DNA of 62,163 bases, counting the filler. It is 9 parts of 9 records of this genome, joined end to end, with 100 filler letters (N's around TTAATTAATTAA, not from the genome) between each part and the next. Parts side by side here need not be neighbours in the genome. Positions count along the whole stretch, not along the records: positions 57,763 to 62,163 come from SRR7504441_992; 8 more parts are not named here. One strand, 5' to 3'. The notes below the pieces were generated by a model. The model was not told the DNA's origin. It searched no databases and saw only the letters and a program-made list of their open reading frames with translations. This document shows positions 933 to 62,163 of this stretch, piece after piece; position 1 is the first letter of the stretch; each line of letters begins with the position of its first letter. The position numbers and the translations under genes are program-made.

Positions 933-2071
933 ATGTTCAGCAACGCGTCCAACTCGACGATGGAGCGGTATGAGAAGCTGGAGAAAGTTGGCGAGGGCAC
1001 GTACGGGGTGGTCTACAAGGCCAAGGACCGCGAGACCAATGAGATCGTGGCGCTCAAGAAGGTCCGCATGGGCTCGGAGGACGAGGGCGTGCCCAGCACC
1101 GCACTCCGTGAAATCGCGCTCCTCAAGGAGATCCAGCACGCCAACTGCGTCGAGTGCGTACCCCGCGTCACTATTCTTGCACGCGCTATGATCTGCTGTT
1201 GCTCATCCGTGATTGGCAGGCTCAAAGAAGTCGAGTCGACCGAGTCAAAGCTCTACCTGATCTTCGAGTGGTGCGATCAGGACCTCAAAAAGTACATGAC
1301 ATCGTACAAGGGTCAGATCACCGAGGAGCGGATTAAGGTGCCTGCGCTTCGCCCCGCCCGAGCCTCGAGCCCCGCTGGTGGCAGTCGCTCATGTACCAGA
1401 TGGTGCTCGGGATCACGTACTGTCACATGCACCGTCTCATCCACAGGGACCTCAAGCCGCAGAACATCCTGATAGACTCAGAGGGCACGCTAAAGCTGGC
1501 CGACTTCGGGCTGGCTCGCGCCTTTACCATCCCGATCGAGACCCTCACTCATGAGGTGGGCCTGCCTCAGCACTGTGGACACGTCGACTGAGGCTGGATG
1601 CTTCGGCAGGTTGTCACGTTGTGGTACCGGGCACCGGAGATCCTGCTGGGTGGCAAACACTACTCAGTTGGTGTAGACATCTGGTCGATCGGCTGCATCT
1701 TTGCCGAGCTCGTAACCAAGCAACCTCTGTTCCCTGGCGACTCAGAAATTGACGAGCTTTACCGCATCTTCCGGTCAGCTGCCCCGTAGGGCCTGGCGAG
1801 GCTCACGCGGTGTGACAGGGTGTGTGGTACTCCGAATGAGATTAACTGGCCTTCTGTGTCCAAGCTGCCAGACTGGAAGCCCACCTTCCCGCAGTGGAAG
1901 CGCGTTGATCTGAGTGAGAATGTGGTGCCGGGGCTTGAGCCGGCGGGAGTTGAGCTGTTGGACCGAATGCTCACATACGAGCCGAGCCTGCGGATCAGTG
2001 GCAAGGACGCGCTCGCTCACCCATACTTCGACCACGGTATCGACAAGGACCAGTTCCAGGCCATCAACTAG
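933..2071 (+). CDS. CDK1: Cyclin-dependent kinase, CDK1/CDC2 family, PSTALRE variant; 4 introns (1154-1219, 1338-1384, ~1556-1609, ~1774-1818)
   Basis: [61 protein letters not shown] introns restore the frame; alternative ATG at 960. Confidence 0.95.
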
Positions 2072-4465: not shown

Positions 4466-4565
4466 NNNNNNNNNNNNNNNNNNNNNNNNNNNNNNNNNNN
4501 NNNNNNNNNTTAATTAATTAANNNNNNNNNNNNNNNNNNNNNNNNNNNNNNNNNNNNNNNNNNNN
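4466..4565. other. Artificial contig linker (N44-TTAATTAATTAA-N44)
   Basis: Identical 100-nt spacer with stops in all six frames; repeated at 10519-10618, 14024-14123, 20062-20161, 30110-30209, 46927-47026, 51165-51264 and 57663-57762. Confidence 0.99.
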
Positions 4566-25411: not shown

Positions 25412-25509
25412 CGCACGCGATGCGCGCCTGCAGCGATTGCACACGCTGCAACCCTGAAGTCCGTTATAATCCGCTCCGCCCCGAAAGCGCGTACGGCGCA
25501 GGACTGGTG

Positions 25510-28500
25510 ATGGCCGTGCTGTTCAACGCGGTGACCGCCGCGGGCGGGCGGTTGGCCCCGACGCCCGAGGTGCCCCGCATCGCGCGCGAGCGGCTGGCTG
25601 GTTTGGTGCGAGAGCACGGCTACCTGCTCGGCCGACAGCTGGCCCAGCTGGCCCGCCGGGTGCCGGTGGACATCCGGCCGCTGCTGGACGGCGCCATGCG
25701 CGAGCTCGAGGCTGAGCTGGACCGGGCTCAGCATATGCCAGCGCTCAGCCGGCTGGCCACCAAGCTGCACCCCTGCCTGGCCGCGCTCCCGCTGCCCGAG
25801 GCCGCCCACCCGGCTGCTGCGGCAATGTGCCCGCGCGTGGCGCTTGCCTTCTCAGGCGGCGGGTGCCGGGCGGCGGCCCAGGGGCTCGGGGCGCTGGAGG
25901 AGCTGGGCGAGGCGCTGGAGCGCGTGGATCACATCAGCTCGGTCTCGGGAGGCGGCTACGCAGCGACGAGCTGGCTAGCATGGGCCGAGAGCATAACGCA
26001 ACAGGAGGGCAGCTCGCCGGAGGTGCTGCAGCAGGCCGCTCGGAGTGTCAAGCAGGCCGCGGCCGCCAGGATGCCCTATTCGACGGTCGGGTGGATGCTG
26101 CGGGCAGTTCTGCTGCTGCTTCTCAACATGGTCTGGACGGCGAGCATGGGCTGCTTCCTTCACCAGACGTGGACAATACAGTGGCTGATCATATTCAGGG
26201 GCGTTGGGATAGGAGAGAACGCGGACATAGTGGTGTTGGTTGTGGCTACCTTCTCGTGCTCAGGCATCTGCGGCCTGTGCGTTGCAGCATTGAACGACCC
26301 TGCCAGCTTTCAAAAAATCACTCCAAAGTCACTTTTGGTGCTGCTAGTGGCCATGGGCGTCAGTGTAGGCTTATTTTACGCCGCAAATGGCATGTTGGGG
26401 ACCTCCCCCGCGCTGCTTGCCTTCCTGCTTTATGGGCCGCCGGTGCTGTGCATTTGTGTCTACTGCCTGGCCCTGAAGCTCTACTCGGAGAAAAGCACCC
26501 AGCGGACAGGGCAGGTAGTGATCACCGGTGTTATGAAGCTCTTCGGGATTGTCTGCGCCGGATTTGTACTCACGCTCCTCTACTACCTCTTGTTCCGCCT
26601 GAACCCGCATTATTCTTGGACAGTGAGCACACTCGTGTTTGGGCTGGAAATCCCGCTGCAGCTCTGCTTTGCCTTACTCATCCTGATGGCTGTTGCCACT
26701 TCTTTCGCTGTGGTTCGTCGGCAGAACACCGGCGAGGCCTTTGGCACAGCTAATAATCAAAGCTTCAACCTGCAACTGCTGGCCACGGACGCCTTATTTG
26801 CTTATGCTCGGCTTCAATTCCTCATCATTGCTATGTGGTTCTCCGGAGGCTTGTTCAAAGACTTTAGGTGTGAGCTGCCGCAGGTTGCCGGGCAGGCCGA
26901 TTGGTGCAATTGGCCACCATGTCAGAGCGCTAGCACCGCCTGTTACAGCTATGACAATGCCTATTTACGAGCGCACTTTGCGACTGACACTCAACTTTAT
27001 TATTGCGGTGCGGCGACGACCTGTGAGCTGAAACAACCCTGCTATATTTGTGATCAGTATCTCACAATACCGGAGAGCTATAATCGATGGCATAACATCT
27101 ATTTGCCGTTTGCAATGGCAATGTACGGTCTGCAGATTCTGCTGCTGCCAGTGCAAATCCGATTGCACTACGGTCTGGGCATCACTCAAGAGCAGGAGCT
27201 CGTGATGACATTTTACCCGGAGAAGACACAGCAAAGCCGGACATCACGCTTGGGGCTGCTGGGCTGGGGCTGGCTGCTGCGCATGGTTGGACTTTCGACC
27301 CTGACGGAAGATGTTGTCACCATTCGCGACCTAGCCGATTGCATGGAGGAGTCGCTCGCTATGCCTGTGCCCGTCATCAATGCAGCTCAGCATGGTGCGC
27401 TGTCTTCCTGTGCTTTGGCTAACCTTGATGTGCAGGTTTTGTGTCCTACTGTTCGCAGCCGTTACTCGGGAAGGAAACTACACGGAGTCACTGCTTGTTT
27501 GAATTCTCGCCCTGGGCATGGGGTTCCGACCGAATCGGCTACCAGAACTACCCACAGGGCGAAAGCCACCGGACAGAATTGGAGACTGGTGAACACCTGC
27601 GGCTTTCAACAGCAATGGCCATATCTGGGGCGGCCACATCGTGTGAAGTCGGCTCTTATGGGCAACAATCATCGTCAGTGCTCGGGCTGGAGAAGTTCAT
27701 CGCCTGGTTGGCGCTCGAGACAGGTCGTTGGTTCCGGTGGGGCGACCACTGTAATGCCTATACCCCGTCACTTTGGGTCCAACTATTTGGGCTATCGCTA
27801 GGGCTGGCTCAAATGGGCCTCCTATACTATAGATGTGACCAGACGGGGGTCGCTGCAGCATCGTGGACCTCACCGATGTATATGACCCTAGGCGACGGCG
27901 ACCAGAAGAAGTTTGCTGGTGGTTACGATTGTTTGGATAGAGACAAATATCCCGAAATCTACATACTGGCCGCAGTCTCGATTGCCTTTATGGGCTACCT
28001 TTTGGCTGGGATCACTTTTGGGCAACTCAACCTGCCTGGAACTAGTTGGCTGGACGGCGCAGCGTTTAATCCTTTTGTCCTCACTCTCATCAAAAGGTGC
28101 ACCTGACCCGACGCTCTCGCCTAGCTCTCGCCTGAATCCTCTGGCTTGCAGATTGAAGTTTACCCCTACAGTAAACCACAGGGAGCCCAAGTTAATCTTC
28201 CTGGCAGATGGGGGACATTACGATAATCTAGCGATATGCCCGCTGTTGCGACGGCGGGCGCGATATATCATCGCAGTTAACTCCAGTGATCAACGAAACA
28301 GTGGTGAGCTCAAGCGTAGTATGGCCCTAGCCCAAAAGGATGCCAACTGTGAGTTTATGGTTCCTGGTCGATCACAGTCCATGTCTAGGGAACTCGACAA
28401 CTTCCACCGACCAAGAGCACTTCTCGACATGGACCTGCTAATAAATAGTTCCAGCTTCATGGACCAGGAAATTACTAGCAGGAGTGGTGAAGGGTGCTCG

Positions 28501-30546: not shown

Positions 30547-32190
30547 CTAGACACTGCAGCTCCGGTCGGCGGCGGCGGTGGCGGCACGGAGAGCCCGACT
30601 CTCGCGGGGGGGGGCTGGAGCAGTTGGCGGTGGGCGGCTCAGCTGCTGCGCCGCCACTGCTGCCGGCGGTAGTGGAACAGCTGCCTCTGGTGGAGCCGCT
30701 GCGGCCTTAAGCTCTGGTACTGGCACAGAGGCATTCTGGTCTACCTCGGCTAGCTTCGCCTGTAACCCGGTCAACTGGAACGGCGAGTGCCGTGGCTCCA
30801 GATTGAACACCGCGTTGAAGCACCGCTCGATGTACGGGAGCAGGCTGGCTCGGAATACCTCGCGTGCTTTGCTAAAGTGCTGCCCTCGCATGATGTGTGC
30901 CGCGGCCCCAGCCAAGGCATCCACAACCAGCCGGGCGATCGGGCCAGCCAGTGAGCGGGCGGCGCAGTGCCTCATGTCGTTGAAGCAGGTGAGCATGTAG
31001 TTGCAGAGCGCTGCCACAGGGCTGCAGCTCAACAGCTCGACCGGTGCAGCGAGTGGGTCGGACGAGGTCGAGTGCAGCTGGGGCGGGGCTGGGCCTGAGG
31101 GCGGGGCCATCTGGCCGAGCAGCTTGTTGAACTCGTCGGGCACCACTAGCATGTTCACTCGGACCATCTCGAGCATTCTGCTCTCAAAGATTGGCACGAG
31201 CAGCCCTCGGAAATCGAGCCCGACCCTCGAGAGCGAGTGCCCGCAGTGCATGTACTGGTCGAGCAGGCTGGCGATCAGGATCGAGTCGGCCACTCGGCTC
31301 AGGCCCTGCTCCAGCTCGGCGAGCATGGCGGTCGCCTTGAGCACGGCCCACTCGTGTGCCATCTGCAAGCTCTCCCTCAGCCCGGGCACCGACTCATCAG
31401 AGGCAAATATGGCGTGAAACTGATTGAGGATCTCGTACATGGAAACCCGCAGGCAGTCGGCCGTCTTGGTCAGCCGGGTGACCACGTTGGTTTCGAGCTG
31501 CAGCTCGCGGAGCTCCGACTCAAGCCACTGGTCGCGGCACTCGAGGAACTTGCGGCTCAGCTCGGCCGGGCTGAAAGCCTTGAGTCGGCGCAAGTGCGCC
31601 ACCACCCGCAGGCATATGTGCAGCTGGAGCGGGGTGCGGAGCAGGCCGAGCAGCTGCTCTACCATCGCGGAGGCCGAGGCTTCCACATCCGCGACCACCT
31701 GCTGCACCACCCTGATGTCTTTGAGGCTGCGACCCATCGAGCGGGCGAAGGCGAGCAGCTCGATCGCCTCATCGAAGTGCTGGTTCCGCACGCAGGTGTC
31801 CATCACCTGCGGTATCTCCAGCACTTCCACCAGCGTCGTATAGCAGTTGAGCGACTCGCGGTTAGTTTTGCGCTCAGCGGCCAGTTCCGTGGCCCGGGTG
31901 CCGAATTGATCGCAGGCGGAGACCAGCTCGGGCAGCGTGGCCTGCATCCCGTCCAGGCTGCGGACCATGCCCCGGGCGGACTCCCGCACGAACGAGATAG
32001 CCTCGACCGACCCGATGAACGCTTGGTAGCCGGAGGTGGCCATCGCGTGCAGCTCGTTCTCGTGGCGCACCTCCTCCAGTCGGAGCAGCTCCGGCTCCTT
32101 CTGCAACCGCTCCAGCCCCAGAGCCCCCAGCTGCTCCAGGTACTGCCCGGTGTCTAAGGGCACACCACCACCCTGAGACGGGCCCGGCAT
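30547..32190 (-). CDS. COG8: Conserved oligomeric Golgi complex subunit 8 (Dor1)
   Basis: LQKEPELL, YQAFI, LVEVLEIPQVMDTCVRN..FDEA, LQLHICLRVVAHLRR, SLSRVGLDFR. Confidence 0.92.
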   Translation of the reverse strand: MPGPSQGGGVPLDTGQYLEQLGALGLERLQKEPELLRLEEVRHENELHAMATSGYQAFIGSVEAISFVRESARGMVRSLDGMQATLPELVSACDQFGTRATELAAERKTNRESLNCYTTLVEVLEIPQVMDTCVRNQHFDEAIELLAFARSMGRSLKDIRVVQQVVADVEASASAMVEQLLGLLRTPLQLHICLRVVAHLRRLKAFSPAELSRKFLECRDQWLESELRELQLETNVVTRLTKTADCLRVSMYEILNQFHAIFASDESVPGLRESLQMAHEWAVLKATAMLAELEQGLSRVADSILIASLLDQYMHCGHSLSRVGLDFRGLLVPIFESRMLEMVRVNMLVVPDEFNKLLGQMAPPSGPAPPQLHSTSSDPLAAPVELLSCSPVAALCNYMLTCFNDMRHCAARSLAGPIARLVVDALAGAAAHIMRGQHFSKAREVFRASLLPYIERCFNAVFNLEPRHSPFQLTGLQAKLAEVDQNASVPVPELKAAAAPPEAAVPLPPAAVAAQQLSRPPPTAPAPPRESRALRAATAAADRSCSV

Positions 32191-51481: not shown

Positions 51482-53266
51482 TTAATAGCGCGTCAACGGG
51501 TCATCGGGATTGTACCATCGTGCTTGCAATATTAGCTCGAGTTCGGGGCGAGCATCGGCCACCTCACTGCGCAGCGCCTCCATTTGGTTGCTGTCCAGCG
51601 TGTTCATGTCCAGATTCAGCGTGCGCAGCCGCTCGGGCAGCTTCTCCAGCACTGCTCGGGCTCCCGCGTTAGTGAGGTGGTTCCGTTGCAGGTCAAGCTC
51701 CAGTAGACTACTGCCTTCGAGCTCCAATTGGGCCGCAGTGAGATCGGTCAGCCCAGTGCCGGCCAAGTGCAGCTGGCACAGGTTGGGGTTGGCCAGCAGC
51801 AGGTTGATGCTTTCGGCTGCCTGCCACAGGGCAGGGTTGTGAGAAAGGTCGAGCGATTGCACCGCTGAGGCCTGGGCCAGCCCCGCGACCTGCCAGGGCT
51901 CCAATCCGAGAGAGGCCAGCCTGAGCCGCTCGAGCTGGCCCATCCCTTTGCACAGCTCCGGCCATGGCTCGAGCAAATCCAGTTCGCACAACTCAAGCGA
52001 GCGCAGCCGGCCCAGCCGGAGCAGCCCGGCCAGCCCCAGCTGCGGGCAGCGGACCCCGGAGAGCTCCAGCCGCTCCAGCCCGTGCCATCCGGCATCCGGC
52101 ATCCGCTCCAGCCGCACGCTTGTAAGGCTCAGCTCGGCCAGCTTGGAGCCTACCGCCTCGAGCCTAGTGACCGCCGCATCGCTCAGCTCGCAGTACGAAA
52201 GACTCAGCGCGGCCGGCAGCTGAGAGAGCGCGCATACAAACCGGTCGGCCTGCCCGTCGACGCTCGCCTTGCGGATCTTGCACGCTGGATCGGCCAGCCG
52301 CTCGGCGAGGTAGCAGGCGGCTCGCACAGCGGTCTGCCCGTCGCAGTCGTCGTCGACCTCGAGATGCTCCAGGCTACGGAAACGGTCGAGCACCTGCTCG
52401 AGCGGCCGCTCGAGTTGGAGGAGGCTGCTCAGCTTGGGGTGGCTGTTGAGCACTTCGTGTGTGTCGTCCAGCAGCGCGAGAAACTGCTCCGTGTGCTCAT
52501 GGCTGGTTTGCCCAAAGCTGGAGAGGGAGAGCAGCCGGCTGTTCACCTCGGCCTGGATGCAAACCTGCCGCCAGCACTCTGCCTGCGGCTGCTGGTCCAG
52601 CCCGCGGGCCGCGCAGTGCTCCCGCCAGGTGAGCTGCGAGTCATACTGCTGGCCGAGCTTGCTAGTCCGGCACTCAAGCCGGCACTGGACCTGCGGGCTG
52701 AGCCCGGCGCACAGCTGCTCGACCAGCCGAGCCCCGATCGAGCTCACCCCGCCCGCCAGCTGGTCGATGTGGTCGGCCAGGCAGCGGCAGCCCGCCCGGA
52801 GCAGCCCGGCCTGACCAAAGTAGTTGGCGCACGGGAGCAGCTCAAGCCAGCACTCCGGCCGGGGCAGCACGCACGGCAGGCTGGCCACTGGCCCGTCGCA
52901 GGCCACGCACCTGCCCGGCCGGCAGAGCGCCTGGTGCTCCTCCAGCATGAACCCGACACACTGCTCGACCAGCTCCGACCCGAAGCACACCGCCGCCGCC
53001 AACTGCACCCCCGGGCCCGGCTCCCCCTCCTCCTCCTCCTCGTGCACCGCCAGCAGCCGCGGGAGCAGGTCGCAGTGCCCAGCGCACGCCATAGGCAGCA
53101 GCACGCTCCGGCCGTCGGCGCAGTCCAGCTGGAGCACCTGCAGCGCCTCGCGCACCAGCGCGGCCGGCGAGAGGGTCGGGCAGGATGGCGCAGGCGCCAG
53201 CACCACAACGTCCTCTCCCGCCGTCTGCGCTGGTCGCCGGCCCCTTCTGCGCCACGGCTTGGCCAT
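51482..53266 (-). CDS. Skp1/BTB-like N-terminal domain + RI-type leucine-rich repeats
   Basis: LQLDCADGRSV, ELLPCANYFGQAGLL..GC..LA..I; LDLSHN, LHLAGTGL, LDLQRNHL, LNLDMN. Confidence 0.75.
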   Translation of the reverse strand: MAKPWRRRGRRPAQTAGEDVVVLAPAPSCPTLSPAALVREALQVLQLDCADGRSVLLPMACAGHCDLLPRLLAVHEEEEEGEPGPGVQLAAAVCFGSELVEQCVGFMLEEHQALCRPGRCVACDGPVASLPCVLPRPECWLELLPCANYFGQAGLLRAGCRCLADHIDQLAGGVSSIGARLVEQLCAGLSPQVQCRLECRTSKLGQQYDSQLTWREHCAARGLDQQPQAECWRQVCIQAEVNSRLLSLSSFGQTSHEHTEQFLALLDDTHEVLNSHPKLSSLLQLERPLEQVLDRFRSLEHLEVDDDCDGQTAVRAACYLAERLADPACKIRKASVDGQADRFVCALSQLPAALSLSYCELSDAAVTRLEAVGSKLAELSLTSVRLERMPDAGWHGLERLELSGVRCPQLGLAGLLRLGRLRSLELCELDLLEPWPELCKGMGQLERLRLASLGLEPWQVAGLAQASAVQSLDLSHNPALWQAAESINLLLANPNLCQLHLAGTGLTDLTAAQLELEGSSLLELDLQRNHLTNAGARAVLEKLPERLRTLNLDMNTLDSNQMEALRSEVADARPELELILQARWYNPDDPLTRY

Positions 53267-55089
53267 ACGCACTGCAGGCGCACTGGGAGCACCAGGAGGC
53301 TTCACAGCGCTGCCGCGGCCGTTGTAAATCTGCGGGTGCGTGCAGGAGGGTGGCGGACCTGGACACCAGCAGCCAGCGGCCTTCGCGCCGGGCGCTGGAC
53401 CCCAGCCCCCGGCGGGCGCGCAAGCCGCCAGCCGCCGATGCGGTGGGCGGTGGGCGGCGTAGCTGGCTGGAAAAGATCTTCGAGCTGCTGGACGAGGACG
53501 GGGACGGCAAGCTGAGCCGGGCGGAGCTGGAGCAGCTCGGCCGGATGGAGCGCTCGTTCTTCTGGCGGGTGTTCTACGAGCAGCTGCTGCTCGGTGCGGT
53601 CCAGTTCGACCGGGCTGGCCAGGTGGGCAGGGAGCAGTTCCTGGAGCACCTGGACGCCGCGCTGCCCCACCAACAGCACAGCTTCGAGCGGGCGGCCCAG
53701 GAGCTGATCGAAGCAGTCAACCCGCGCAGCCGGACCCCGGAGCGCCGCCGTACCCGTTCCAAGTCCAAGCCAGCCAGCCCGCGCCGACCCCGGGCCGAGA
53801 AGGCCAGCGCGCCGCCCGAGGACGGCTCGGTGCATGGGGCGCTGTCGAGGGTCTCCGGTGTGGCGCCGAGGCCGGAGAGCGAACAGCAGAGCGTGGAGGA
53901 GACGAGCAAGCTCAGGGGGCAGATGGAACAGATGGAGAGGGTGCACGCGCGGGAGAAGGTTGAGTTTGAGACAGAGCAGGCGCTGGCCCGACGCAGGCTG
54001 CTCGAGGCCGAAGAGGCGGCCGATGAGCTCAAGGATCAGCTGGATCAGCTCAGAGCCAGTAGCCTCACAATCAAAGCAAGCAATGAGCTGGAAGCCCAAG
54101 CTTCAACTCGGCAAGACGAGGTACTGGCGCTAAGCGAGCAGATCGGCAGTCTGTGGCACGAGCGGGAGCAGGCGGCGGCTCAGCTAGAATCGGCCCAGAA
54201 GCAGTGGGCGGCCGAGCGCTGCAGGTTGGAGTCGGATCAGCACCAACAGCTGGGCGAGCACAGGAGCCGATGGACCGAACAGGCAAACGCTCTGCAGCGC
54301 GAGAAGGACATAGCGACCGGCCAGCTGGTGCAAGCGGAGGCCGAGCTGGCCAGGAGCGAGTCTCAGCTCCGTCAGCTGAAGCTCGAGCTGCAAGAGATGA
54401 CCGACGGCATCAGACATCGCGAGCGCGCGTGGCAAGCTGAAAGGGCGCGGCTGCAGGAGAGCAAGCAGGAGCTCGAGTCGGCGTGCTGCAACTTAATGCT
54501 CAGGCTGACAGAGACACAGGCCGAAGCGTCCAAGGCTAAAGCTGATAAGGAAGCTGCCCAGAGCAGTCTGGAGGAACTTGAGGTAAGCTCTCAAGTCAGC
54601 TCGCAGCACAAGCTCAATTCGATGCTCAAGAAGATGGCCGAACAGAAGCGAGCCCACCAAACAGAGCTCCAAGCCCAGGCCTCGGAGCAGAGCGCTGCTC
54701 AACTGGAGCTGGAGCTGGAGCTGGCCAACTTGAGACAGGCAAACGCGGCTGCGGAGGGCACTGTGCGCCGATTGCAGCAGGAGCAAGCGCAGGTCAGCCG
54801 TCTGGCAGGGGAGAACAAACAGTTGAAGGAAAGCCATTCCCAACTGGAAGCCCGGTACCGGGTGGTAGTAAAAGCGTTGGAAGAGATGGAGAGCCAAGTC
54901 ACAACGCTGCGGACAGAAGTTGTCAGTGCTGCTGCAAATACAATCCACAGACGCAACAGAGCGGCACAAGCCGACTGGTATGTCTCTGCTGATAACCCTC
55001 AGGAATCAAACTTAGCTCTAAGCATTGAGCGAGCTCAAGATGCTGCAGATAAGCTCTGCCGATTTCAATGGCAAGATGATGTGCAATAG
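53185..55089 (+). CDS. EF-hand + long coiled-coil protein; start codon uncertain
   Basis: IFELLDEDGDGKLSRAEL (canonical EF loop), second degenerate loop, heptad-rich remainder. Confidence 0.75.
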   Translation: MAQAPAPQRPLPPSALVAGPFCATAWPYALQAHWEHQEASQRCRGRCKSAGACRRVADLDTSSQRPSRRALDPSPRRARKPPAADAVGGGRRSWLEKIFELLDEDGDGKLSRAELEQLGRMERSFFWRVFYEQLLLGAVQFDRAGQVGREQFLEHLDAALPHQQHSFERAAQELIEAVNPRSRTPERRRTRSKSKPASPRRPRAEKASAPPEDGSVHGALSRVSGVAPRPESEQQSVEETSKLRGQMEQMERVHAREKVEFETEQALARRRLLEAEEAADELKDQLDQLRASSLTIKASNELEAQASTRQDEVLALSEQIGSLWHEREQAAAQLESAQKQWAAERCRLESDQHQQLGEHRSRWTEQANALQREKDIATGQLVQAEAELARSESQLRQLKLELQEMTDGIRHRERAWQAERARLQESKQELESACCNLMLRLTETQAEASKAKADKEAAQSSLEELEVSSQVSSQHKLNSMLKKMAEQKRAHQTELQAQASEQSAAQLELELELANLRQANAAAEGTVRRLQQEQAQVSRLAGENKQLKESHSQLEARYRVVVKALEEMESQVTTLRTEVVSAAANTIHRRNRAAQADWYVSADNPQESNLALSIERAQDAADKLCRFQWQDDVQ

Positions 55090-57662: not shown

Positions 57663-57905
57663 NNNNNNNNNNNNNNNNNNNNNNNNNNNNNNNNNNNNNN
57701 NNNNNNTTAATTAATTAANNNNNNNNNNNNNNNNNNNNNNNNNNNNNNNNNNNNNNNNNNNNTTTTGTAAGATGTGTTTTGTAAGATGTGCAGACTATCC
57801 TCCAACCGTCCGTTGTGCGACGAGATCAGTGTCGACGCGGCGCAGGCTGCAGACTGTGTCGGCGGCTACACGGTTTGAGGAGACGGCTGGGAGGCCTGAG
57901 GCGGG

Positions 57906-60900
57906 ATGGAGGCCAGCCTGGAGGCCGACTTGGGCCGGGTGGCTGAGCTGAGCTCTATGGGGTACGTGGCGCTCAAGGCGCACCTCAAGGCCTCCGGCAA
58001 GGTCGACCCTGCCGCGGTGGACCGGGCGCTATCTAAGCAGGAGCTGCTCCGCCTGGTCTCCGGCGAGCCCGAGCGGCCGGAGCAGCCGGTGACGTGGCTC
58101 AAACCGGAGCATCCGGTCACATGGATCCGACACACGTGTGACCGGCGGCACTGGATCCGGCGCACCGAGTTGATGAAACTGTGCGCCTCGAGCAGCTACG
58201 CCAACCGGCCGGGCGGGCCGGGATTTCCATCGGTGGAGGAGCTGGCTGGGATGGACCCAGCTCTGCTCAACGGGCAGATGCTCGACTGGCACAGCACCCC
58301 GCTCTGTCTGGCTGCCGACAGCGGGCACGTCCTGGCGGTGGAGCGGCTGCTGGCAGCCAAGGCCGACCCGAACTGCCTTCCGGTCAAGACCACCAGGGAC
58401 GGCGGGGGCAGCCGGCTCCGGCTGACGCCTCTGCACTTTGCGGTCCGGTCTGGCTTCCACAGCGCTGTCCCGACCGAACATCGCGCCCGGACAGTGCGAG
58501 CGCTGCTCGAGGCCAGTGGTCGGGACCTCAACGTGCGGTGCGATCGGTCGGGCGCCACGGCGCTCTCGCACGCGGTGCAGTGCAAGACACGCTTGAGCGT
58601 GCGCCAGCTGCTGGCCTGTCCCGACATCGACCCCGACCTGCCGGACCACGACGGCGTCTGCCCGCTGCTGCACGCCGTGCTGCTCAGGAGTGAGCAAATG
58701 GTGGCCGAGCTACTTGACCCCCCTGGCCGGCTCAACGTCAACTTCACCTGCGCCGAGGTCCAGCACAGGACAGCGCTCCACCTGGCGAGTACCGCGCCAG
58801 AGAGCCGGTGGGACATGCTCGGATGGCTGCTCAATCAGCCGGCGGTTGCACTGGACCCTGCCGACCTCGAGGGCCGGACTCCCTTAATGTACGCTGCGAT
58901 TTCCGGCCAGATACACGCCGCCTCGCGGCTGATTGACGCCGGCGCCCAGATCAACCTCTGCGACAGCCCTACCAGCGGCGGCCAGCCCCGCACCGCGCTA
59001 GACTATGCCAGCAAGCACCAGCACACGGAGCTGAGTCGGTTGCTGGCCGAGCGAGGGGCGGTCTCAGCAGACCTAGTGGAGCAGCTGCATGCGGCGGCGG
59101 CCAGACAGGACCAGACCCGGTGCGTTGAGCTGATTGAAGCCGGAGTGGACCTGCACAGCCTAGACGCGGACGGCCGGTCACCCCTCGTGCGGGCTGCGAG
59201 CAATGGCTGGGTCGATTCCGTTAGGATCGTGCTCAATCTGGCGGACCAGTCTACCCCCGAGGCAAACTGCGCGCAAATCCGGCTGGCGATGGTGGCAGCT
59301 GTGCAGGCGTCCGACGTCGAGATGGCGAGGTGCATCTTGGACCACCCAGCCGTCGATCCCAAAGCGGCGTGCCTGGGCGAGACGGTTGAGGGGCAACTGG
59401 GCGGGCTCGCCATCAATCCCGAGGTGCACAGTAAGCCGGTGCTCTTGCTGGTAATCGAACAGTCGCCGCGAGATGGAGAGCATGCGGCCCGGCTGTTGTC
59501 AGTGTGCCAGGCTGTGGTGTGTCGATGTCCACAATCGGTGGACCAGCTAGTTTCAGGCCGGGACACCGTGCTGGTCCTGGCCAGGGGCAGCCCTAACAAC
59601 TTGATCAGGCAGTGGGCGTCGGCGTACGGCTCGTACTTAGGAAGGTATAAGCTGTTGGCCGAGCAGCCTGAGCATAAGAGCGCCACTTGCGAGGTGTGGC
59701 GAGCGCAGGACACGATTGAGCTCAAGGAGGTTGCCCTGAAAATTGTTGCGGAGCGAGAACATTTCGAATCCGAGGTGCTCTGCCGGGTGAACAAGGGCGG
59801 CTCCAGGCTGGACGACAGCTACGTGCTGGATCTGGTTAGGACTCACGTGCCTCCGGGGTTTGTGTCGGACTATGTGGGACAGACGGTGGACTGGCTTGTG
59901 GACGCCAGCCACTGCTCGACGGAGGAAAGCTTTGTGCTGTGCATGCCTTGGGCCGATAGGAACTTGGCTCAGATCGCCGTGATGGAGCGCGTGGCCGGGA
60001 TCAGCCTTGACACGATCATGGAAATCTCAGCACAGTTTGCCAGGGGACTGCAATATTTACACCAGAATGATCTAATCCACGGTGATGCCAAGCCCCGAAA
60101 CGTGGTCAGGATAAACGGACGATTCAAGCTGATTGACCTCGACGCGTCTGCCAGTTTTGACCAGCCGTGTGGTAAAAAGTTCTCGGAGGCTTACGTGCCT
60201 CCAGAATTCATGCGGCTGCTGCTGCCGACCAGGGCGCAGCACAAGGGCCTCAGCAAGCACCCGCACCCGACGATACCCGCCAAGCCGTCCTTCGACATTT
60301 GGCAGTTCGGGGTGGTTTTATTCGAGCTGCTGTCTGGTGCAGATCTGTTCCCAAAGGATTTCAACGACGACACAATTTGTCTCGCCGAGGACTGCCACAA
60401 GCTGGCAACTTGGACAGAGCCGCCGCCCGAGAAACTCGACTTGGTGCTCAGATCTGCGAGCGCCACACCCGTGCGGTTGATGATGGCCCGGGACTTGCTC
60501 TCCCTCTGCCTCCAGGGATCGGAAGAGAACAGGCCGGCCTCCATGTGCAGCATATTGGCACATCCTTTCTTCTGCGCACCGGACCTGCCGATTGCATCCT
60601 TGCCTTCGGATATGAGGCTGCCAGATACAGTGGACGTGGTCTTCAGCTACCAGAGCACGCAAGTGGTGTTCCTCCGCAGGATCAGGAGGGCACTCAACGC
60701 ACTAGGGATTGCAACGGCAGACGGGACTCAAGTGCCCGCAGGCCACGACTGGAGGGCTTGGTACTTTAGCAAGGCCAACAAGGCGGCCCTGTTCATCCCC
60801 ATTTGCAGCCCTAATCTATTTCGTTCGAGCGCGTGCTTCGAGGAGGCGCTGTGGTGCATGAACATGAACAAGCCCGTGATCAGACTCAACTACGACCAGC

Positions 60901-62150
60901 CGGGGTTCGACGGGCTGATGAATGACCCCGGAAATAAGAGAAACAGCGAGACGCAGGGCCAGCCGGGCTACCGCTCCATGCTCGCCGGCTGCCCGGCTGT
61001 CCCAGAGCTCGGCCAGTTCGATCTCGGATTCTTTGCCAACCTCAAGAAGCTGGTTGACGTGATCATCGGTCGGCTCCCAGAGCGGCCTCGGCCTCGAATC
61101 CACCTTGTCTGCGCTCCAGACCCGCAGCAGCGCGAGTTCTCGTCCTCTTTGAGTGAGAAGCTGTGCGCGCAAGGGTTCGACGCGAGGGTGCTCGACGCTG
61201 CTGCGCCTGACCAGCCTGCGGAGGTTTGCCTGCCGGTGATTTCTGGGGGCTTGCTCCAGTGTCCAAATGCGAGCGAGCTCCTCCAGCTAGAGCAGGAGAA
61301 CAAGGCGCAGTGGCTGCCGGTGCTGTACGACATCAGTTCGTTCTATTCGGCGAGAAGCTGCTACAAGGACTCTCCGGACACAGCACTGAGAGTGCCCCAT
61401 CTCCTGAGCATTCTCAATACCGCTAATCGAACGCCACCCAGTAGCAACTTCACTGACAATTACCGCGACAACTTTGATACGCTGCTGGCGGCGCTGCGGC
61501 GGCTGGTTTTGATGGATCGGCAGCCGCGAGCTCGGCTGGCACACTACCTGCCCAAGTTTAGCACTATACTCCACGGCAGCCCAAAGCTACCTAGCTCGGG
61601 CATCCTGTCGCCCGACTGCTTTGATGACTCGATGGACGAGCTAATGGGCTTGATCCGGCCAATCAGACTGAAGGAGGCCCTGCCGCACAACCCGGCAGAA
61701 ACCAGCTCATCGGTGCGTGGCCCTGTAGTAGTGGTGTCGCATACCTCAGCAAAGATCGAGCTGCTGCGATCGGTAGTGGAATTCCTCAAGGGCCAGGGGC
61801 TCACCGTGATCTTCCATGAAGACCCCGACCCCCTTGAGTGGTTTGACGACTGTGACGACGCAAGTGTGTGCCTATTGTGGATCACGCGCGACTTTGTGGC
61901 CACGGCGTGCGGATTGAACTCTCAACGGCTGCAGTCCCAGATGACGTTTGCCAAGGACAACCGGCTGCAGTTGATTCCTTTGATGGCTGAGAGCGTCAGG
62001 TTGGAGGTCGACTATCTGCTGTCGAACCGCGGCCAGGAGATGCAAGACCTAATGGCGCTGCTGCAACAGAAGGAGGAGATAATTCAAAATCAGCAAAGCG
62101 AGTTGAGAAGATTACAACAGCTAAGAGGCGGCCCCCCAGCTAGTTTATAG
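57906..62150 (+). CDS. Ankyrin repeats - protein kinase - three TIR-like domains - coiled coil; intronless, 1414 aa
   Basis: TPLCLAA/TPLHFAV/TALHLA/TPLMYAA ankyrin repeats; VALK, HGDAKPRN, LIDLD, YVPPE, DIWQFG kinase; DVVFSYQ...FIPICSPNLFRSSACFEEA...KPVI TIR, plus two further TIR-like blocks. Confidence 0.88.
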   Translation: MEASLEADLGRVAELSSMGYVALKAHLKASGKVDPAAVDRALSKQELLRLVSGEPERPEQPVTWLKPEHPVTWIRHTCDRRHWIRRTELMKLCASSSYANRPGGPGFPSVEELAGMDPALLNGQMLDWHSTPLCLAADSGHVLAVERLLAAKADPNCLPVKTTRDGGGSRLRLTPLHFAVRSGFHSAVPTEHRARTVRALLEASGRDLNVRCDRSGATALSHAVQCKTRLSVRQLLACPDIDPDLPDHDGVCPLLHAVLLRSEQMVAELLDPPGRLNVNFTCAEVQHRTALHLASTAPESRWDMLGWLLNQPAVALDPADLEGRTPLMYAAISGQIHAASRLIDAGAQINLCDSPTSGGQPRTALDYASKHQHTELSRLLAERGAVSADLVEQLHAAAARQDQTRCVELIEAGVDLHSLDADGRSPLVRAASNGWVDSVRIVLNLADQSTPEANCAQIRLAMVAAVQASDVEMARCILDHPAVDPKAACLGETVEGQLGGLAINPEVHSKPVLLLVIEQSPRDGEHAARLLSVCQAVVCRCPQSVDQLVSGRDTVLVLARGSPNNLIRQWASAYGSYLGRYKLLAEQPEHKSATCEVWRAQDTIELKEVALKIVAEREHFESEVLCRVNKGGSRLDDSYVLDLVRTHVPPGFVSDYVGQTVDWLVDASHCSTEESFVLCMPWADRNLAQIAVMERVAGISLDTIMEISAQFARGLQYLHQNDLIHGDAKPRNVVRINGRFKLIDLDASASFDQPCGKKFSEAYVPPEFMRLLLPTRAQHKGLSKHPHPTIPAKPSFDIWQFGVVLFELLSGADLFPKDFNDDTICLAEDCHKLATWTEPPPEKLDLVLRSASATPVRLMMARDLLSLCLQGSEENRPASMCSILAHPFFCAPDLPIASLPSDMRLPDTVDVVFSYQSTQVVFLRRIRRALNALGIATADGTQVPAGHDWRAWYFSKANKAALFIPICSPNLFRSSACFEEALWCMNMNKPVIRLNYDQPGFDGLMNDPGNKRNSETQGQPGYRSMLAGCPAVPELGQFDLGFFANLKKLVDVIIGRLPERPRPRIHLVCAPDPQQREFSSSLSEKLCAQGFDARVLDAAAPDQPAEVCLPVISGGLLQCPNASELLQLEQENKAQWLPVLYDISSFYSARSCYKDSPDTALRVPHLLSILNTANRTPPSSNFTDNYRDNFDTLLAALRRLVLMDRQPRARLAHYLPKFSTILHGSPKLPSSGILSPDCFDDSMDELMGLIRPIRLKEALPHNPAETSSSVRGPVVVVSHTSAKIELLRSVVEFLKGQGLTVIFHEDPDPLEWFDDCDDASVCLLWITRDFVATACGLNSQRLQSQMTFAKDNRLQLIPLMAESVRLEVDYLLSNRGQEMQDLMALLQQKEEIIQNQQSELRRLQQLRGGPPASL

Positions 62151-62163
62151 CGATACGGTAGTT

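Follow-up and report, generated by a model that had tools for sequence, protein, structure and literature searches.

What kind of protein does the last contig of this stretch of DNA encode, and what could such a protein be for? The stretch, hereafter the window, is 62,163 nucleotides (nt) long and consists of nine contigs joined end to end, the last of which carries one long open reading frame (ORF). A first-pass annotation had read this frame as an ankyrin-kinase-triple-TIR protein, a candidate for a one-component system of innate immunity or cell death in a protist. Its product is, as predicted here, a soluble signalling protein of a marine protist in which a variable N-terminal module is followed by a kinase, three TIR domains (TIR1, TIR2 and TIR3) and a C-terminal helix. 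TIR2 and TIR3 are, by the comparisons set out below, old degenerate copies that have lost, family-wide, the glutamate which TIR1 retains at the position regarded as catalytic. The question reaches beyond a single locus, as TIR is the most widely shared immune module of bacteria, plants and animals, and its roles in protists have been tested only lately.

Three TIR domains, one with the glutamate

We begin with TIR1, the domain in which the TIR signature is strongest. Residues 895-1065, scanned alone, score 29.1 bits against the Pfam TIR_2 family (STIR clan, cut-off 28), and in the scan of the whole protein the same family is matched in two stretches with 38.0 bits. The structural evidence comes from an AlphaFold model of residues 895-1414, built with an alignment of 50 relatives. 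Over these 520 residues the mean predicted local distance difference test score (pLDDT) is 89.6 and the predicted template-modelling score (pTM) is 0.80; a model made without the alignment has a pLDDT of 39.4 and is unusable. The confidence of the model points to a fixed three-domain body, in which model residues 14-165 form a complete, five-stranded alpha/beta TIR fold with pLDDT above 90. A structure search with the model placed 163 of 1000 chains at a Z score of at least 8, and the top 50 listed are almost all TIRs. The SARM1 TIR (9mw2_A) is matched with Z 16.9 and a root-mean-square deviation of 2.1 over 129 residues (Z 16.2 in a search independent of Foldseek), and the TIRs of SPARTA (16.9), Caenorhabditis elegans TIR-1 (16.1), Hydra TRR-2 (16.0) and RUN1 (15.2) stand close by, together with the receptor and adaptor TIRs of IL-1RAcPb (16.0), IL-18Rbeta (15.6) and MyD88 (15.1-15.5).

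Sequence comparison adds the active-site signature. A plain phmmer search of PDB sequences with the C-terminal 520 residues gave no match at E<=10, and TIR_2 clusters of the Atlas at 0.81-0.84 for the C-terminus serve as a lead only. The profile of block 1 (we call the three TIR units blocks 1 to 3 when referring to the family alignment and its hidden Markov models, HMMs) does find solved TIRs: Cat1 is the best match (E 1.2e-7), RPV1, SNC1 and RPPT-TIR follow at E 0.0025-0.0067, and TLR15 is matched too. The block-1 motif 'S.aC.dE-l' aligns with SDWCWDEL of Cat1, SRWCLDEL of RPV1 and STWCLNEL of SNC1, and it is on the strength of this alignment that Glu980, the last residue of SSACFEE (residues 974-980), is identified as the counterpart of the glutamate which the literature treats as catalytic in TIR NADases. 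TIR1 thus carries a glutamate at the catalytic position of NAD+-cleaving TIR enzymes, in the C-x-x-E motif of the alpha-C helix, and the codon (GAG) lies at 60843, where the first-pass annotation had put it. The BB-loop is likewise preserved across block 1, with the motif DG.QVP.G.DWR, in which Trp is invariant and Gly, Pro and Arg are conserved at 90% or more.

Are the two following blocks TIR domains at all? Pfam barely recognises them. Block 2 of the query has no Pfam match at E<=10; in the relatives P0100 (18.7 bits) and P0054 (16.6 bits) it matches TIR_2 below the cut-off of 28. Block 3 of the query stays below the cut-off with 16.5 bits (E 0.013), and block 3 of the relative P0033 passes it with 28.7 bits. 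When family columns are compared by hhalign, block 2 pairs with block 1 at 99.3% (E 4.6e-20, 141 columns), block 3 with block 1 at 98.5% (E 1.6e-15) and block 3 with block 2 at 98.0%. Set against a canonical TIR_2 profile made of 38 segments from ten multi-TIR proteins, and hence independent of the family, block 2 scores 96.8% (E 2.8e-10) and block 3 scores 97.1% (E 7.7e-11). Helical linkers used as controls gave 0.1% in the test against block 1 and 0.4% in the test against canonical TIR_2. When fragments without block 1 are scanned by Pfam, TIR_2 comes first for block 3 in 6/8 of those that contain block 3, and for block 2 in 2/8 of those that contain block 2. The model is confident over both blocks (pLDDT 87-98, and 90-98 in block 2), with an order of beta strands and alpha helices that fits a TIR-like alpha/beta domain. 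Judged by profile-profile comparison, blocks 2 and 3 are TIR homologues, and the three tandem TIR-like domains of the annotation stand, as does its remark that the glutamate pattern is missing from the second and third, where Leu1125 and Gln1345 occupy the aligned position. The coiled coil which it placed at the end of the protein holds in part: the model has a long helix there, for which a coiled-coil arrangement is only possible. Similar helical tails end the relatives, and weak second matches of the block-2 HMM fall on the TIR2-TIR3 linker in some of them.

The asymmetry between the three domains is a property of the whole family. Residues were counted in family representatives only, with each domain assigned to its best-scoring block HMM; the query, same-cluster duplicates, prokaryote-like multi-TIR proteins, P0127 and P0129 were excluded. 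On this basis the glutamate is present in 60/64 block-1 domains (E980 in the query), in 1/28 block-2 domains (L1125) and in 0/17 block-3 domains (Q1345), the last having Gln in 12, Arg in 4 and Lys in 1. The serine and cysteine of the block-1 motif are about as constant (Ser974 in 66/66, Cys977 in 65/66). Block 3 has a conserved glutamate of its own two residues earlier (13/17), giving C-E-x-Q in place of C-x-x-E; the query has Gln1343 there. Block 2 lacks the BB-loop stretch, and block 3 has a shorter version of it. As the fold signal survives in blocks 2 and 3 although the glutamate is gone, the fold alone does not account for this residue having stayed in block 1. The best argument for catalysis that the sequences offer is that the glutamate persists only together with the BB-loop and has disappeared from sister domains whose fold signal survives. 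As a separate detail of block 3, the query and its closest relatives have Gln at the site of the block-specific, earlier glutamate and share a 6-residue insert just before it (region 1342-1345 in the query).

When did the copies diverge? In a maximum-likelihood tree of 106 TIR cores over 115 columns, rooted at the midpoint and with a bootstrap that had not fully settled, blocks 2 and 3 group together with support of 97/97. Within this group 24/25 block-2 rows form one clade (99/84), and 13 block-3 rows form another together with one odd row (90/92). Within the limits of the tree, triplication and loss of the glutamate predate the spread of the family.

Kinase, front ends and proposed function

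The family was collected by an exhaustive HMMER search with residues 895-1414 against 1.84 billion representatives. Relatives numbered 106 at E<=1e-3, of which 37 pass E<=1e-10 and 7 pass E<=1e-30. A word-indexed homologue search with the same residues found nothing, and a single-protein query of JGI metagenome contigs found no relative. The working alignment holds 50 of the 106 relatives plus the query; it leaves out many short block-1 fragments and the large multi-TIR proteins, whose WD40 or CHASE2 partners led us to assume, unchecked, a prokaryote-like character. Telonema subtile transcripts are the only named sources (P0006, P0010 and P0031), the other records coming from ENA, Logan and JGI. 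By the block HMMs, the order block 1, block 2, block 3 is found in the query and in nine representatives (P0002-P0007, P0009, P0012 and P0014), and partial fragments contribute six cases of block 2 before block 3 and twelve of block 1 before block 2. A 309-residue fragment, P0023, is the sole departure, with the order block 2, block 2, block 1; its second block 2 groups with block 3 in the tree. The kinase sits directly upstream of block 1 in 7/38 matches scanned by Pfam and in 14 representatives by phmmer.

The kinase itself is well marked. Pfam Pkinase covers residues 670-889 (E 1.8e-18, 67.3 bits), and the N-lobe (578-669), too diverged for Pfam, is yet conserved among the relatives. The query has the VAIK lysine (K612, in VALK), the alpha-C glutamate (E623), a catalytic loop with H725-G-D727, K729 and N732, a DFG equivalent (D744-L-D746) and an APE equivalent (PPE767); the VAIK Lys, alpha-C Glu, HRD Asp, catalytic-loop Asn and DFG Asp are conserved in most members. 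We expect an active but atypical kinase. The lead-in before it (485-577) has no significant Pfam match and can be aligned to P0010, P0006, P0126 and P0127. The HGD motif prompted the idea of an IRAK/Pelle-like kinase, which was dropped, the solved structures matched being generic: SNRK is the best (E 5.5e-9), PHO85 and CDK2 follow, and the range is E 5e-9 to 5e-8.

Ahead of the kinase the family is far less uniform. In the query the ankyrin array is plain in a scan of the whole protein (Ank_2 E 3.1e-37 in 6 stretches, Ank 3.2e-21, Ank_4 6.4e-20), so that both the ankyrin repeats and the kinase named at first pass are confirmed. Residues 1-130 have no Pfam match at E<=10, and their Atlas look-alikes all lie below 0.8, at noise level; a SAP-like N-terminus, considered as a candidate, is unsupported by the Pfam scan. 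The sole other member with a long N-terminus, P0112 (1231 residues), has 5 hydrophobic segments and no ankyrin, and P0041 has EF-hands ahead of blocks 2 and 3. Outside the three-TIR family proper, P0127 combines ankyrin repeats, a kinase (29% identical to that of the query), a single canonical TIR and a coiled coil, and P0130 and P0131 have ankyrin repeats and kinase without a TIR. P0129, of 1656 residues, runs from leucine-rich repeats (LRRs) through two hydrophobic segments and a kinase to a canonical TIR_2; it has 14 cluster members, on metagenome contigs of up to 138 kb. The picture that emerges from these architectures is of a conserved kinase(-TIR) core to which repeat or membrane front ends appear to be attached interchangeably.

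What could be the mode of action of such a protein? The ankyrin array would be the input, binding a protein ligand or holding the protein in an off state. Activation would gather copies through the C-terminal helix and TIR-TIR contacts, and the kinase would phosphorylate itself or a partner, acting as a switch or as a second output. TIR1 would then cleave NAD+, leading either to its depletion or to a signal of the cyclic ADP-ribose (cADPR) type. Solved TIR enzymes need neighbouring TIRs, as in SARM1, in the plant TIR-type resistance proteins (TNLs) and in bacterial filaments; the TIR2 and TIR3 domains, devoid of the glutamate, would replace such neighbours as built-in scaffold partners of TIR1. 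The likely role would be innate defence, or stress and cell-death signalling. In published work, NADase activity is reported for TIRs from four protist lineages, and in Gephyrocapsa a response of TIR genes to virus. That TIR1 is an NAD+-cleaving enzyme seems to us slightly probable; a role in defence is an evenly balanced call; and the whole chain from sensor through kinase and TIR1 NADase to scaffold, exactly as laid out, is tentative and somewhat short of an even chance. A bolder version would see in the core a new class of protist innate-immune receptor, in which the pseudo-TIRs are a pre-assembled, intramolecular stand-in for an oligomer that gates or completes TIR1, the kinase sets the switch and the sensors (ankyrin, membrane domain, possibly EF-hands) can be swapped. 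If true, a single polypeptide would correspond both to the TNL resistosome of plants and to the TLR-MyD88-IRAK chain of animals; we consider this version doubtful.

Several observations weigh against the sensor-kinase-NADase scheme. The Z scores of enzymes and of receptor or adaptor TIRs tie, so that the fold cannot tell one from the other. The glutamate is necessary without being sufficient; in a published protist screen only 4/29 TIRs bearing it were active, and the TLR2 TIR was inactive. For blocks 2 and 3, the hit lists of the fold searches are taken up by block-1 matches and are silent, and the block-3 profile finds no solved TIR among PDB sequences (best E 0.15, unrelated). The kinase has 'EHKSATCEV' in place of the glycine-rich loop GxGxxG (family form 'H.SATC.V'), and the relatives P0012 and P0106 have lost the catalytic residues, so kinase activity is not required family-wide. 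No PADLOC model was matched by the three TIR blocks at E<=0.01, the only matches being generic ones to kinase and ankyrin. One 151-nt metagenome contig of depth 2 has TAA instead of TAT at 61346, in the codon of Tyr1147, a change that could come from a sequencing error, a non-functional allele or a paralogous gene. Finally, a locus confined to a single 4.4-kb contig limits the genomic context, providing neither a wider neighbourhood nor a paralogue count.

Some of these facts suit a different output. The TIRs might be assembly surfaces that recruit TIR proteins or substrates to the fused kinase, the signal being phosphorylation and not NAD+ chemistry; the protein would then unite in one chain the equivalents of receptor TIR, adaptor TIR and IRAK-type kinase, and Richter et al. 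have put forward a hypothesis of the same kind for Kinase TIRs (PMC6040629). The small share of active TIRs in the protist screen and the good fit of IL-1RAcPb, IL-18Rbeta and MyD88 to TIR1 agree with such adaptor-type signalling, as do the C-x-x-E-L motif shared by TLR15, the absence of the catalytic glutamate from 2/3 TIRs, the retained catalytic residues of the kinase and its place directly upstream of the TIRs in the 14 representatives. However, the retention of the glutamate in block 1 and its loss from the sister domains fit selection on catalysis better than selection on the fold, the solved TIR that matches best by sequence is that of the NADase Cat1, and the TLR4 TIR has been reported to make cADPR, which blurs the divide between adaptor and enzyme. 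We regard adaptor-type signalling as rather unlikely, and an enzymatic TIR1 remains the reading that we prefer.

Need the signal concern defence? The protein could instead serve feeding or prey recognition, mating, the response to osmotic or nutrient stress, or NAD+ or calcium signalling via cADPR, which is a calcium-mobilising messenger; its association with immunity would then stem from the TIR name only. An infection link is not seen in any data examined, P0041 joins EF-hands to blocks 2-3, PADLOC has no match for the TIRs, and the family is of modest size, at 106 matches with E<=1e-3. On the other hand, immune receptors have just such a pattern of variable, sensor-like N-termini on a conserved core, seen here as ankyrin, a membrane domain and, among proteins with the related kinase, LRRs, and protist TIR proteins have been tied to defence wherever tested, as with TirA and in Gephyrocapsa. 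A role outside defence is, in our estimate, improbable.

Whatever the output, innate defence through an enzymatic TIR1 or otherwise, the protein amounts to a natural experiment, since a single chain joins to a kinase, in a set order, one TIR that has glutamate and BB-loop and two old copies that lack both. Should TIR1 prove active, the protein could show how non-catalytic TIRs control a catalytic one and how phosphorylation is coupled to NAD+-derived signalling. An inactive TIR1 would still leave a compact system in which to study adaptor-type signalling by TIRs outside the animals.

The contig and its source

The 8 linkers that join the nine contigs each consist of an N-run, TTAATTAATTAA and a second N-run, with stops in all frames. 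The TTAATTAATTAA element stands at positions 4510, 10563, 14068, 20106, 30154, 46971, 51209 and 57707 of the window, with none expected by chance. As the pieces are separate contigs, genes on opposite sides of a linker are unlinked in the genome. The contig of interest is the last piece, about 57763-62163 (4.4 kb). Its features are collected in the table below, in which the limits of the domains agree with those given at first pass, as checked by Pfam, the block HMMs, the AlphaFold model and residue positions.

Features of the ORF contig, with positions counted along the window
Feature	Residues	Position	Strand	Remarks
Artificial joiner		57664..57762	.	N-run, TTAATTAATTAA at 57707-57718, N-run; splits the ORF contig from the preceding one; not biology
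Complete ORF	1-1414	57906..62150	+	1414 residues, unbroken frame of 4242 nt; in-frame stops upstream; TAG at 62148-62150
N-terminal region	1-130	57906..58295	+	No recognisable family
Ankyrin array, about ten repeats	~131-484	58296..59357	+	Pfam; repeat count and limits by eye
Linker and conserved kinase lead-in	485-577	59358..59636	+	'IRQWASAYGSYLGRY' type motif common to relatives
Protein kinase	578-889	59637..60572	+	Pfam Pkinase, residues 670-889; N-lobe by family alignment
TIR1	~908-1059	60627..61082	+	907-1060 by block HMM; complete TIR; BB-loop and S-x-x-C-x-x-E
Glu980 codon (GAG)	980	60843..60845	+	Second Glu of SSACFEE; aligned with the C-x-x-E-L Glu of solved TIRs
TIR2, diverged	1062-1205	61089..61520	+	Leu1125 at the Glu position; BB-loop region deleted
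Helical linker TIR2-TIR3	1206-1268	61521..61709	+	Model helices 313-329 and 342-356; further copy of the 'P..G.F' helix motif
TIR3, diverged	1269-1364	61710..61997	+	Gln1345 at the Glu position; 6-residue insert common to closest relatives
C-terminal long helix, possible coiled coil	1368-1406	62007..62123	+	Model helix 474-512; pLDDT 84-89 in the middle part

The ATG at 57906 is the first start, because the frame upstream of it carries stops, and the TAG stop lies 13 nt ahead of the end of the window. The ORF had been described as single and intronless. The unbroken frame bears this out; since it sits on a 4.4-kb piece, 'intronless' holds for the reading frame on the contig only. A Kyte-Doolittle scan of all 1414 residues finds zero hydrophobic segments, hence the prediction of a soluble protein. 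The start of the contig, 57763-57800, is a direct repeat in which TTTTGTAAGATGTG occurs twice. A metagenome contig of run X2 that matches 57801-57978 has 53 unrelated letters upstream of 57801, and this mismatch could reflect variation between strains, the end of an assembly, or a junction of the splice or leader type.

Could the ORF be a chimera of ankyrin, kinase and TIR genes, brought together by misassembly of the kind seen in metagenomes? The window is made of nine contigs, the contig of interest measures 4.4 kb, and the exact protein is absent from a collection of 15 billion proteins. Sixteen metagenome contigs of 150-314 nt, from four runs, match the ORF; they are scattered along its whole length with parts uncovered, and no domain junction is bridged by any of them. 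Their identity to the ORF is 99% or more in 4, 95-99% in 9 and 90-95% in 3. Against a chimera stand the 4242-nt frame, which is unbroken, these near-identical pieces from four runs along the whole ORF, the order kinase, TIR1, TIR2, TIR3 in independent sequences that include Telonema transcripts, and ankyrin repeats followed by the same kinase subfamily in P0127, P0130 and P0131. Such an artefact is very improbable.

Taking the ORF, then, as a genuine gene, single-letter differences in the near-identical metagenome contigs are synonymous in 15/21 cases, a modest sign of purifying selection on the frame. Marine and seawater metagenome runs contain small shares of the words of the ORF (0.05-0.10), and no RNA run is among the listed holders of these words.

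The other contigs of the window say something of the organism. Across its 62 kb there are 23 ORFs of at least 250 residues, and the source eukaryote is apparently intron-poor. One of them, on another contig, is an uninterrupted COG8/Dor1 gene of 547 residues (30547-32190, minus strand, Pfam E 2.6e-73). Among named relatives land plants come closest, at 34-36% identity, and the best of the others reach 59-60%; given identities this low, the source is a eukaryote to which no named organism in the library is closely related, and this one gene leans weakly towards the plant side of the eukaryote tree. The protist origin assumed at first pass fits both this gene and the named relatives of the query, which come from Telonema subtile. 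An origin of the contigs in a giant virus, considered as an alternative, is countered by the same COG8 gene and by the lack of viral fold relatives. A tblastn search with the protein found no paralogue in the rest of the window; its sole match, at 1397-1753 (plus strand), covers 125 residues, is 29.6% identical to the catalytic region of the kinase (E 1.2e-5), and is a different kinase gene on another contig. An ORF of 793 residues at 25420-27801 (plus strand) matches the start of a patatin-like phospholipase domain with residues 142-188 (E 2.2e-7), and the remainder matches nothing. Two ORFs on opposite strands, 51482-53266 (minus) and 53185-55089 (plus), overlap by about 80 nt; one of the pair has a weak LRR_6 match and the other a single EF-hand.

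Comparison with known systems

How does the protein relate to systems already described? Viral folds offer no counterpart: BFVD returned only low-TM Rossmann-like multidomain proteins, with a TIR/WD40 protein of a Tetraselmis virus at a probability of 0.98 and a TMq of 0.22. Closest in structure is SARM1 (TIR-1 in nematodes), an NADase of the layout ARM-SAM-SAM-TIR. It is the best structural match of TIR1, and it combines a regulatory N-terminus made of repeats, an element for oligomerisation and a TIR that depends on its glutamate, a layout which the query may share; it differs in being 11-13% identical and in that the query has a kinase and two pseudo-TIRs. The query has no SAM or ARM among its Pfam matches at E<=1, and we do not count it in the SARM1 family. 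The bacterial and plant TIR proteins Cat1 (CRISPR-associated TIR 1), RPV1/RUN1, SNC1, RPP1, SPARTA TIR-APAZ and ThsB share the aligned S..C..E-L helix and match the fold with Z 13-17 (ThsB 13.1), whereas the partner domains of Cat1 and of the other enzymes among them differ from those of the query.

Several TIRs within one chain are not unusual as such. Mollusc Tolls with twin TIRs have been reported (PMC4929906), and in Dictyostelium TirE Pfam overlooks a tandem pair of diverged TIRs (bioRxiv 10.64898/2026.04.30.722052); the query resembles both in its tandem arrangement and TirE also in the invisibility of the extra copies to Pfam. In the multi-TIR arrays with WD40 or CHASE2 (P0057, P0082, P0097 and others) every copy is a strong TIR_2 match. 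The query and its family are set apart from multi-TIR proteins by copies that are asymmetric, with glutamate and BB-loop in one only, that stand in a fixed order throughout the family, and that are coupled to a kinase. The coupling of TIR assembly to a kinase recalls the logic of the animal TLR-MyD88-IRAK pathway, in which death domains link parts that are proteins in their own right; the kinase of the query is not specifically IRAK-like.

The first-pass annotation did not recognise this architecture from any characterised protein. Its core turns out to be in print, and kinase plus three TIRs to be a recurrent family. Richter et al. (2018) described choanoflagellate 'Kinase TIRs', with Pkinase directly upstream of TIR and no membrane span, and 'Kinase TLRs', which have LRRs and a membrane span in addition (PMC6040629). 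Both are called unique to choanoflagellates and uncharacterised, and are proposed to short-cut the recruitment of adaptor and kinase (PMC6040629). The literature within our scope holds no description of an ankyrin-kinase-triple-TIR protein, the supplements of the 2026 TIR atlas preprint (EukProt-based, and hence a place where Telonema members may be listed) being outside that scope. Three features seem new: the conserved combination of one TIR with glutamate and two degenerate TIRs fused to a kinase, the occurrence of a kinase-TIR module beyond choanoflagellates, in Telonema and marine protists, and the ankyrin-fronted form.

The query conforms to the published definition of a Kinase TIR, with Pkinase followed by TIR and no hydrophobic segment, and P0129, with its LRRs and hydrophobic segments, resembles the layout of a Kinase TLR. 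Unlike the choanoflagellate proteins, the family is found in Telonema subtile and marine eukaryotes, and it has three TIRs, two of them degenerate, together with ankyrin repeats and a C-terminal helix. The likeness is one of architecture. Kinase-TIR fusions beyond choanoflagellates bear on whether such proteins are of ancient or of repeated origin.

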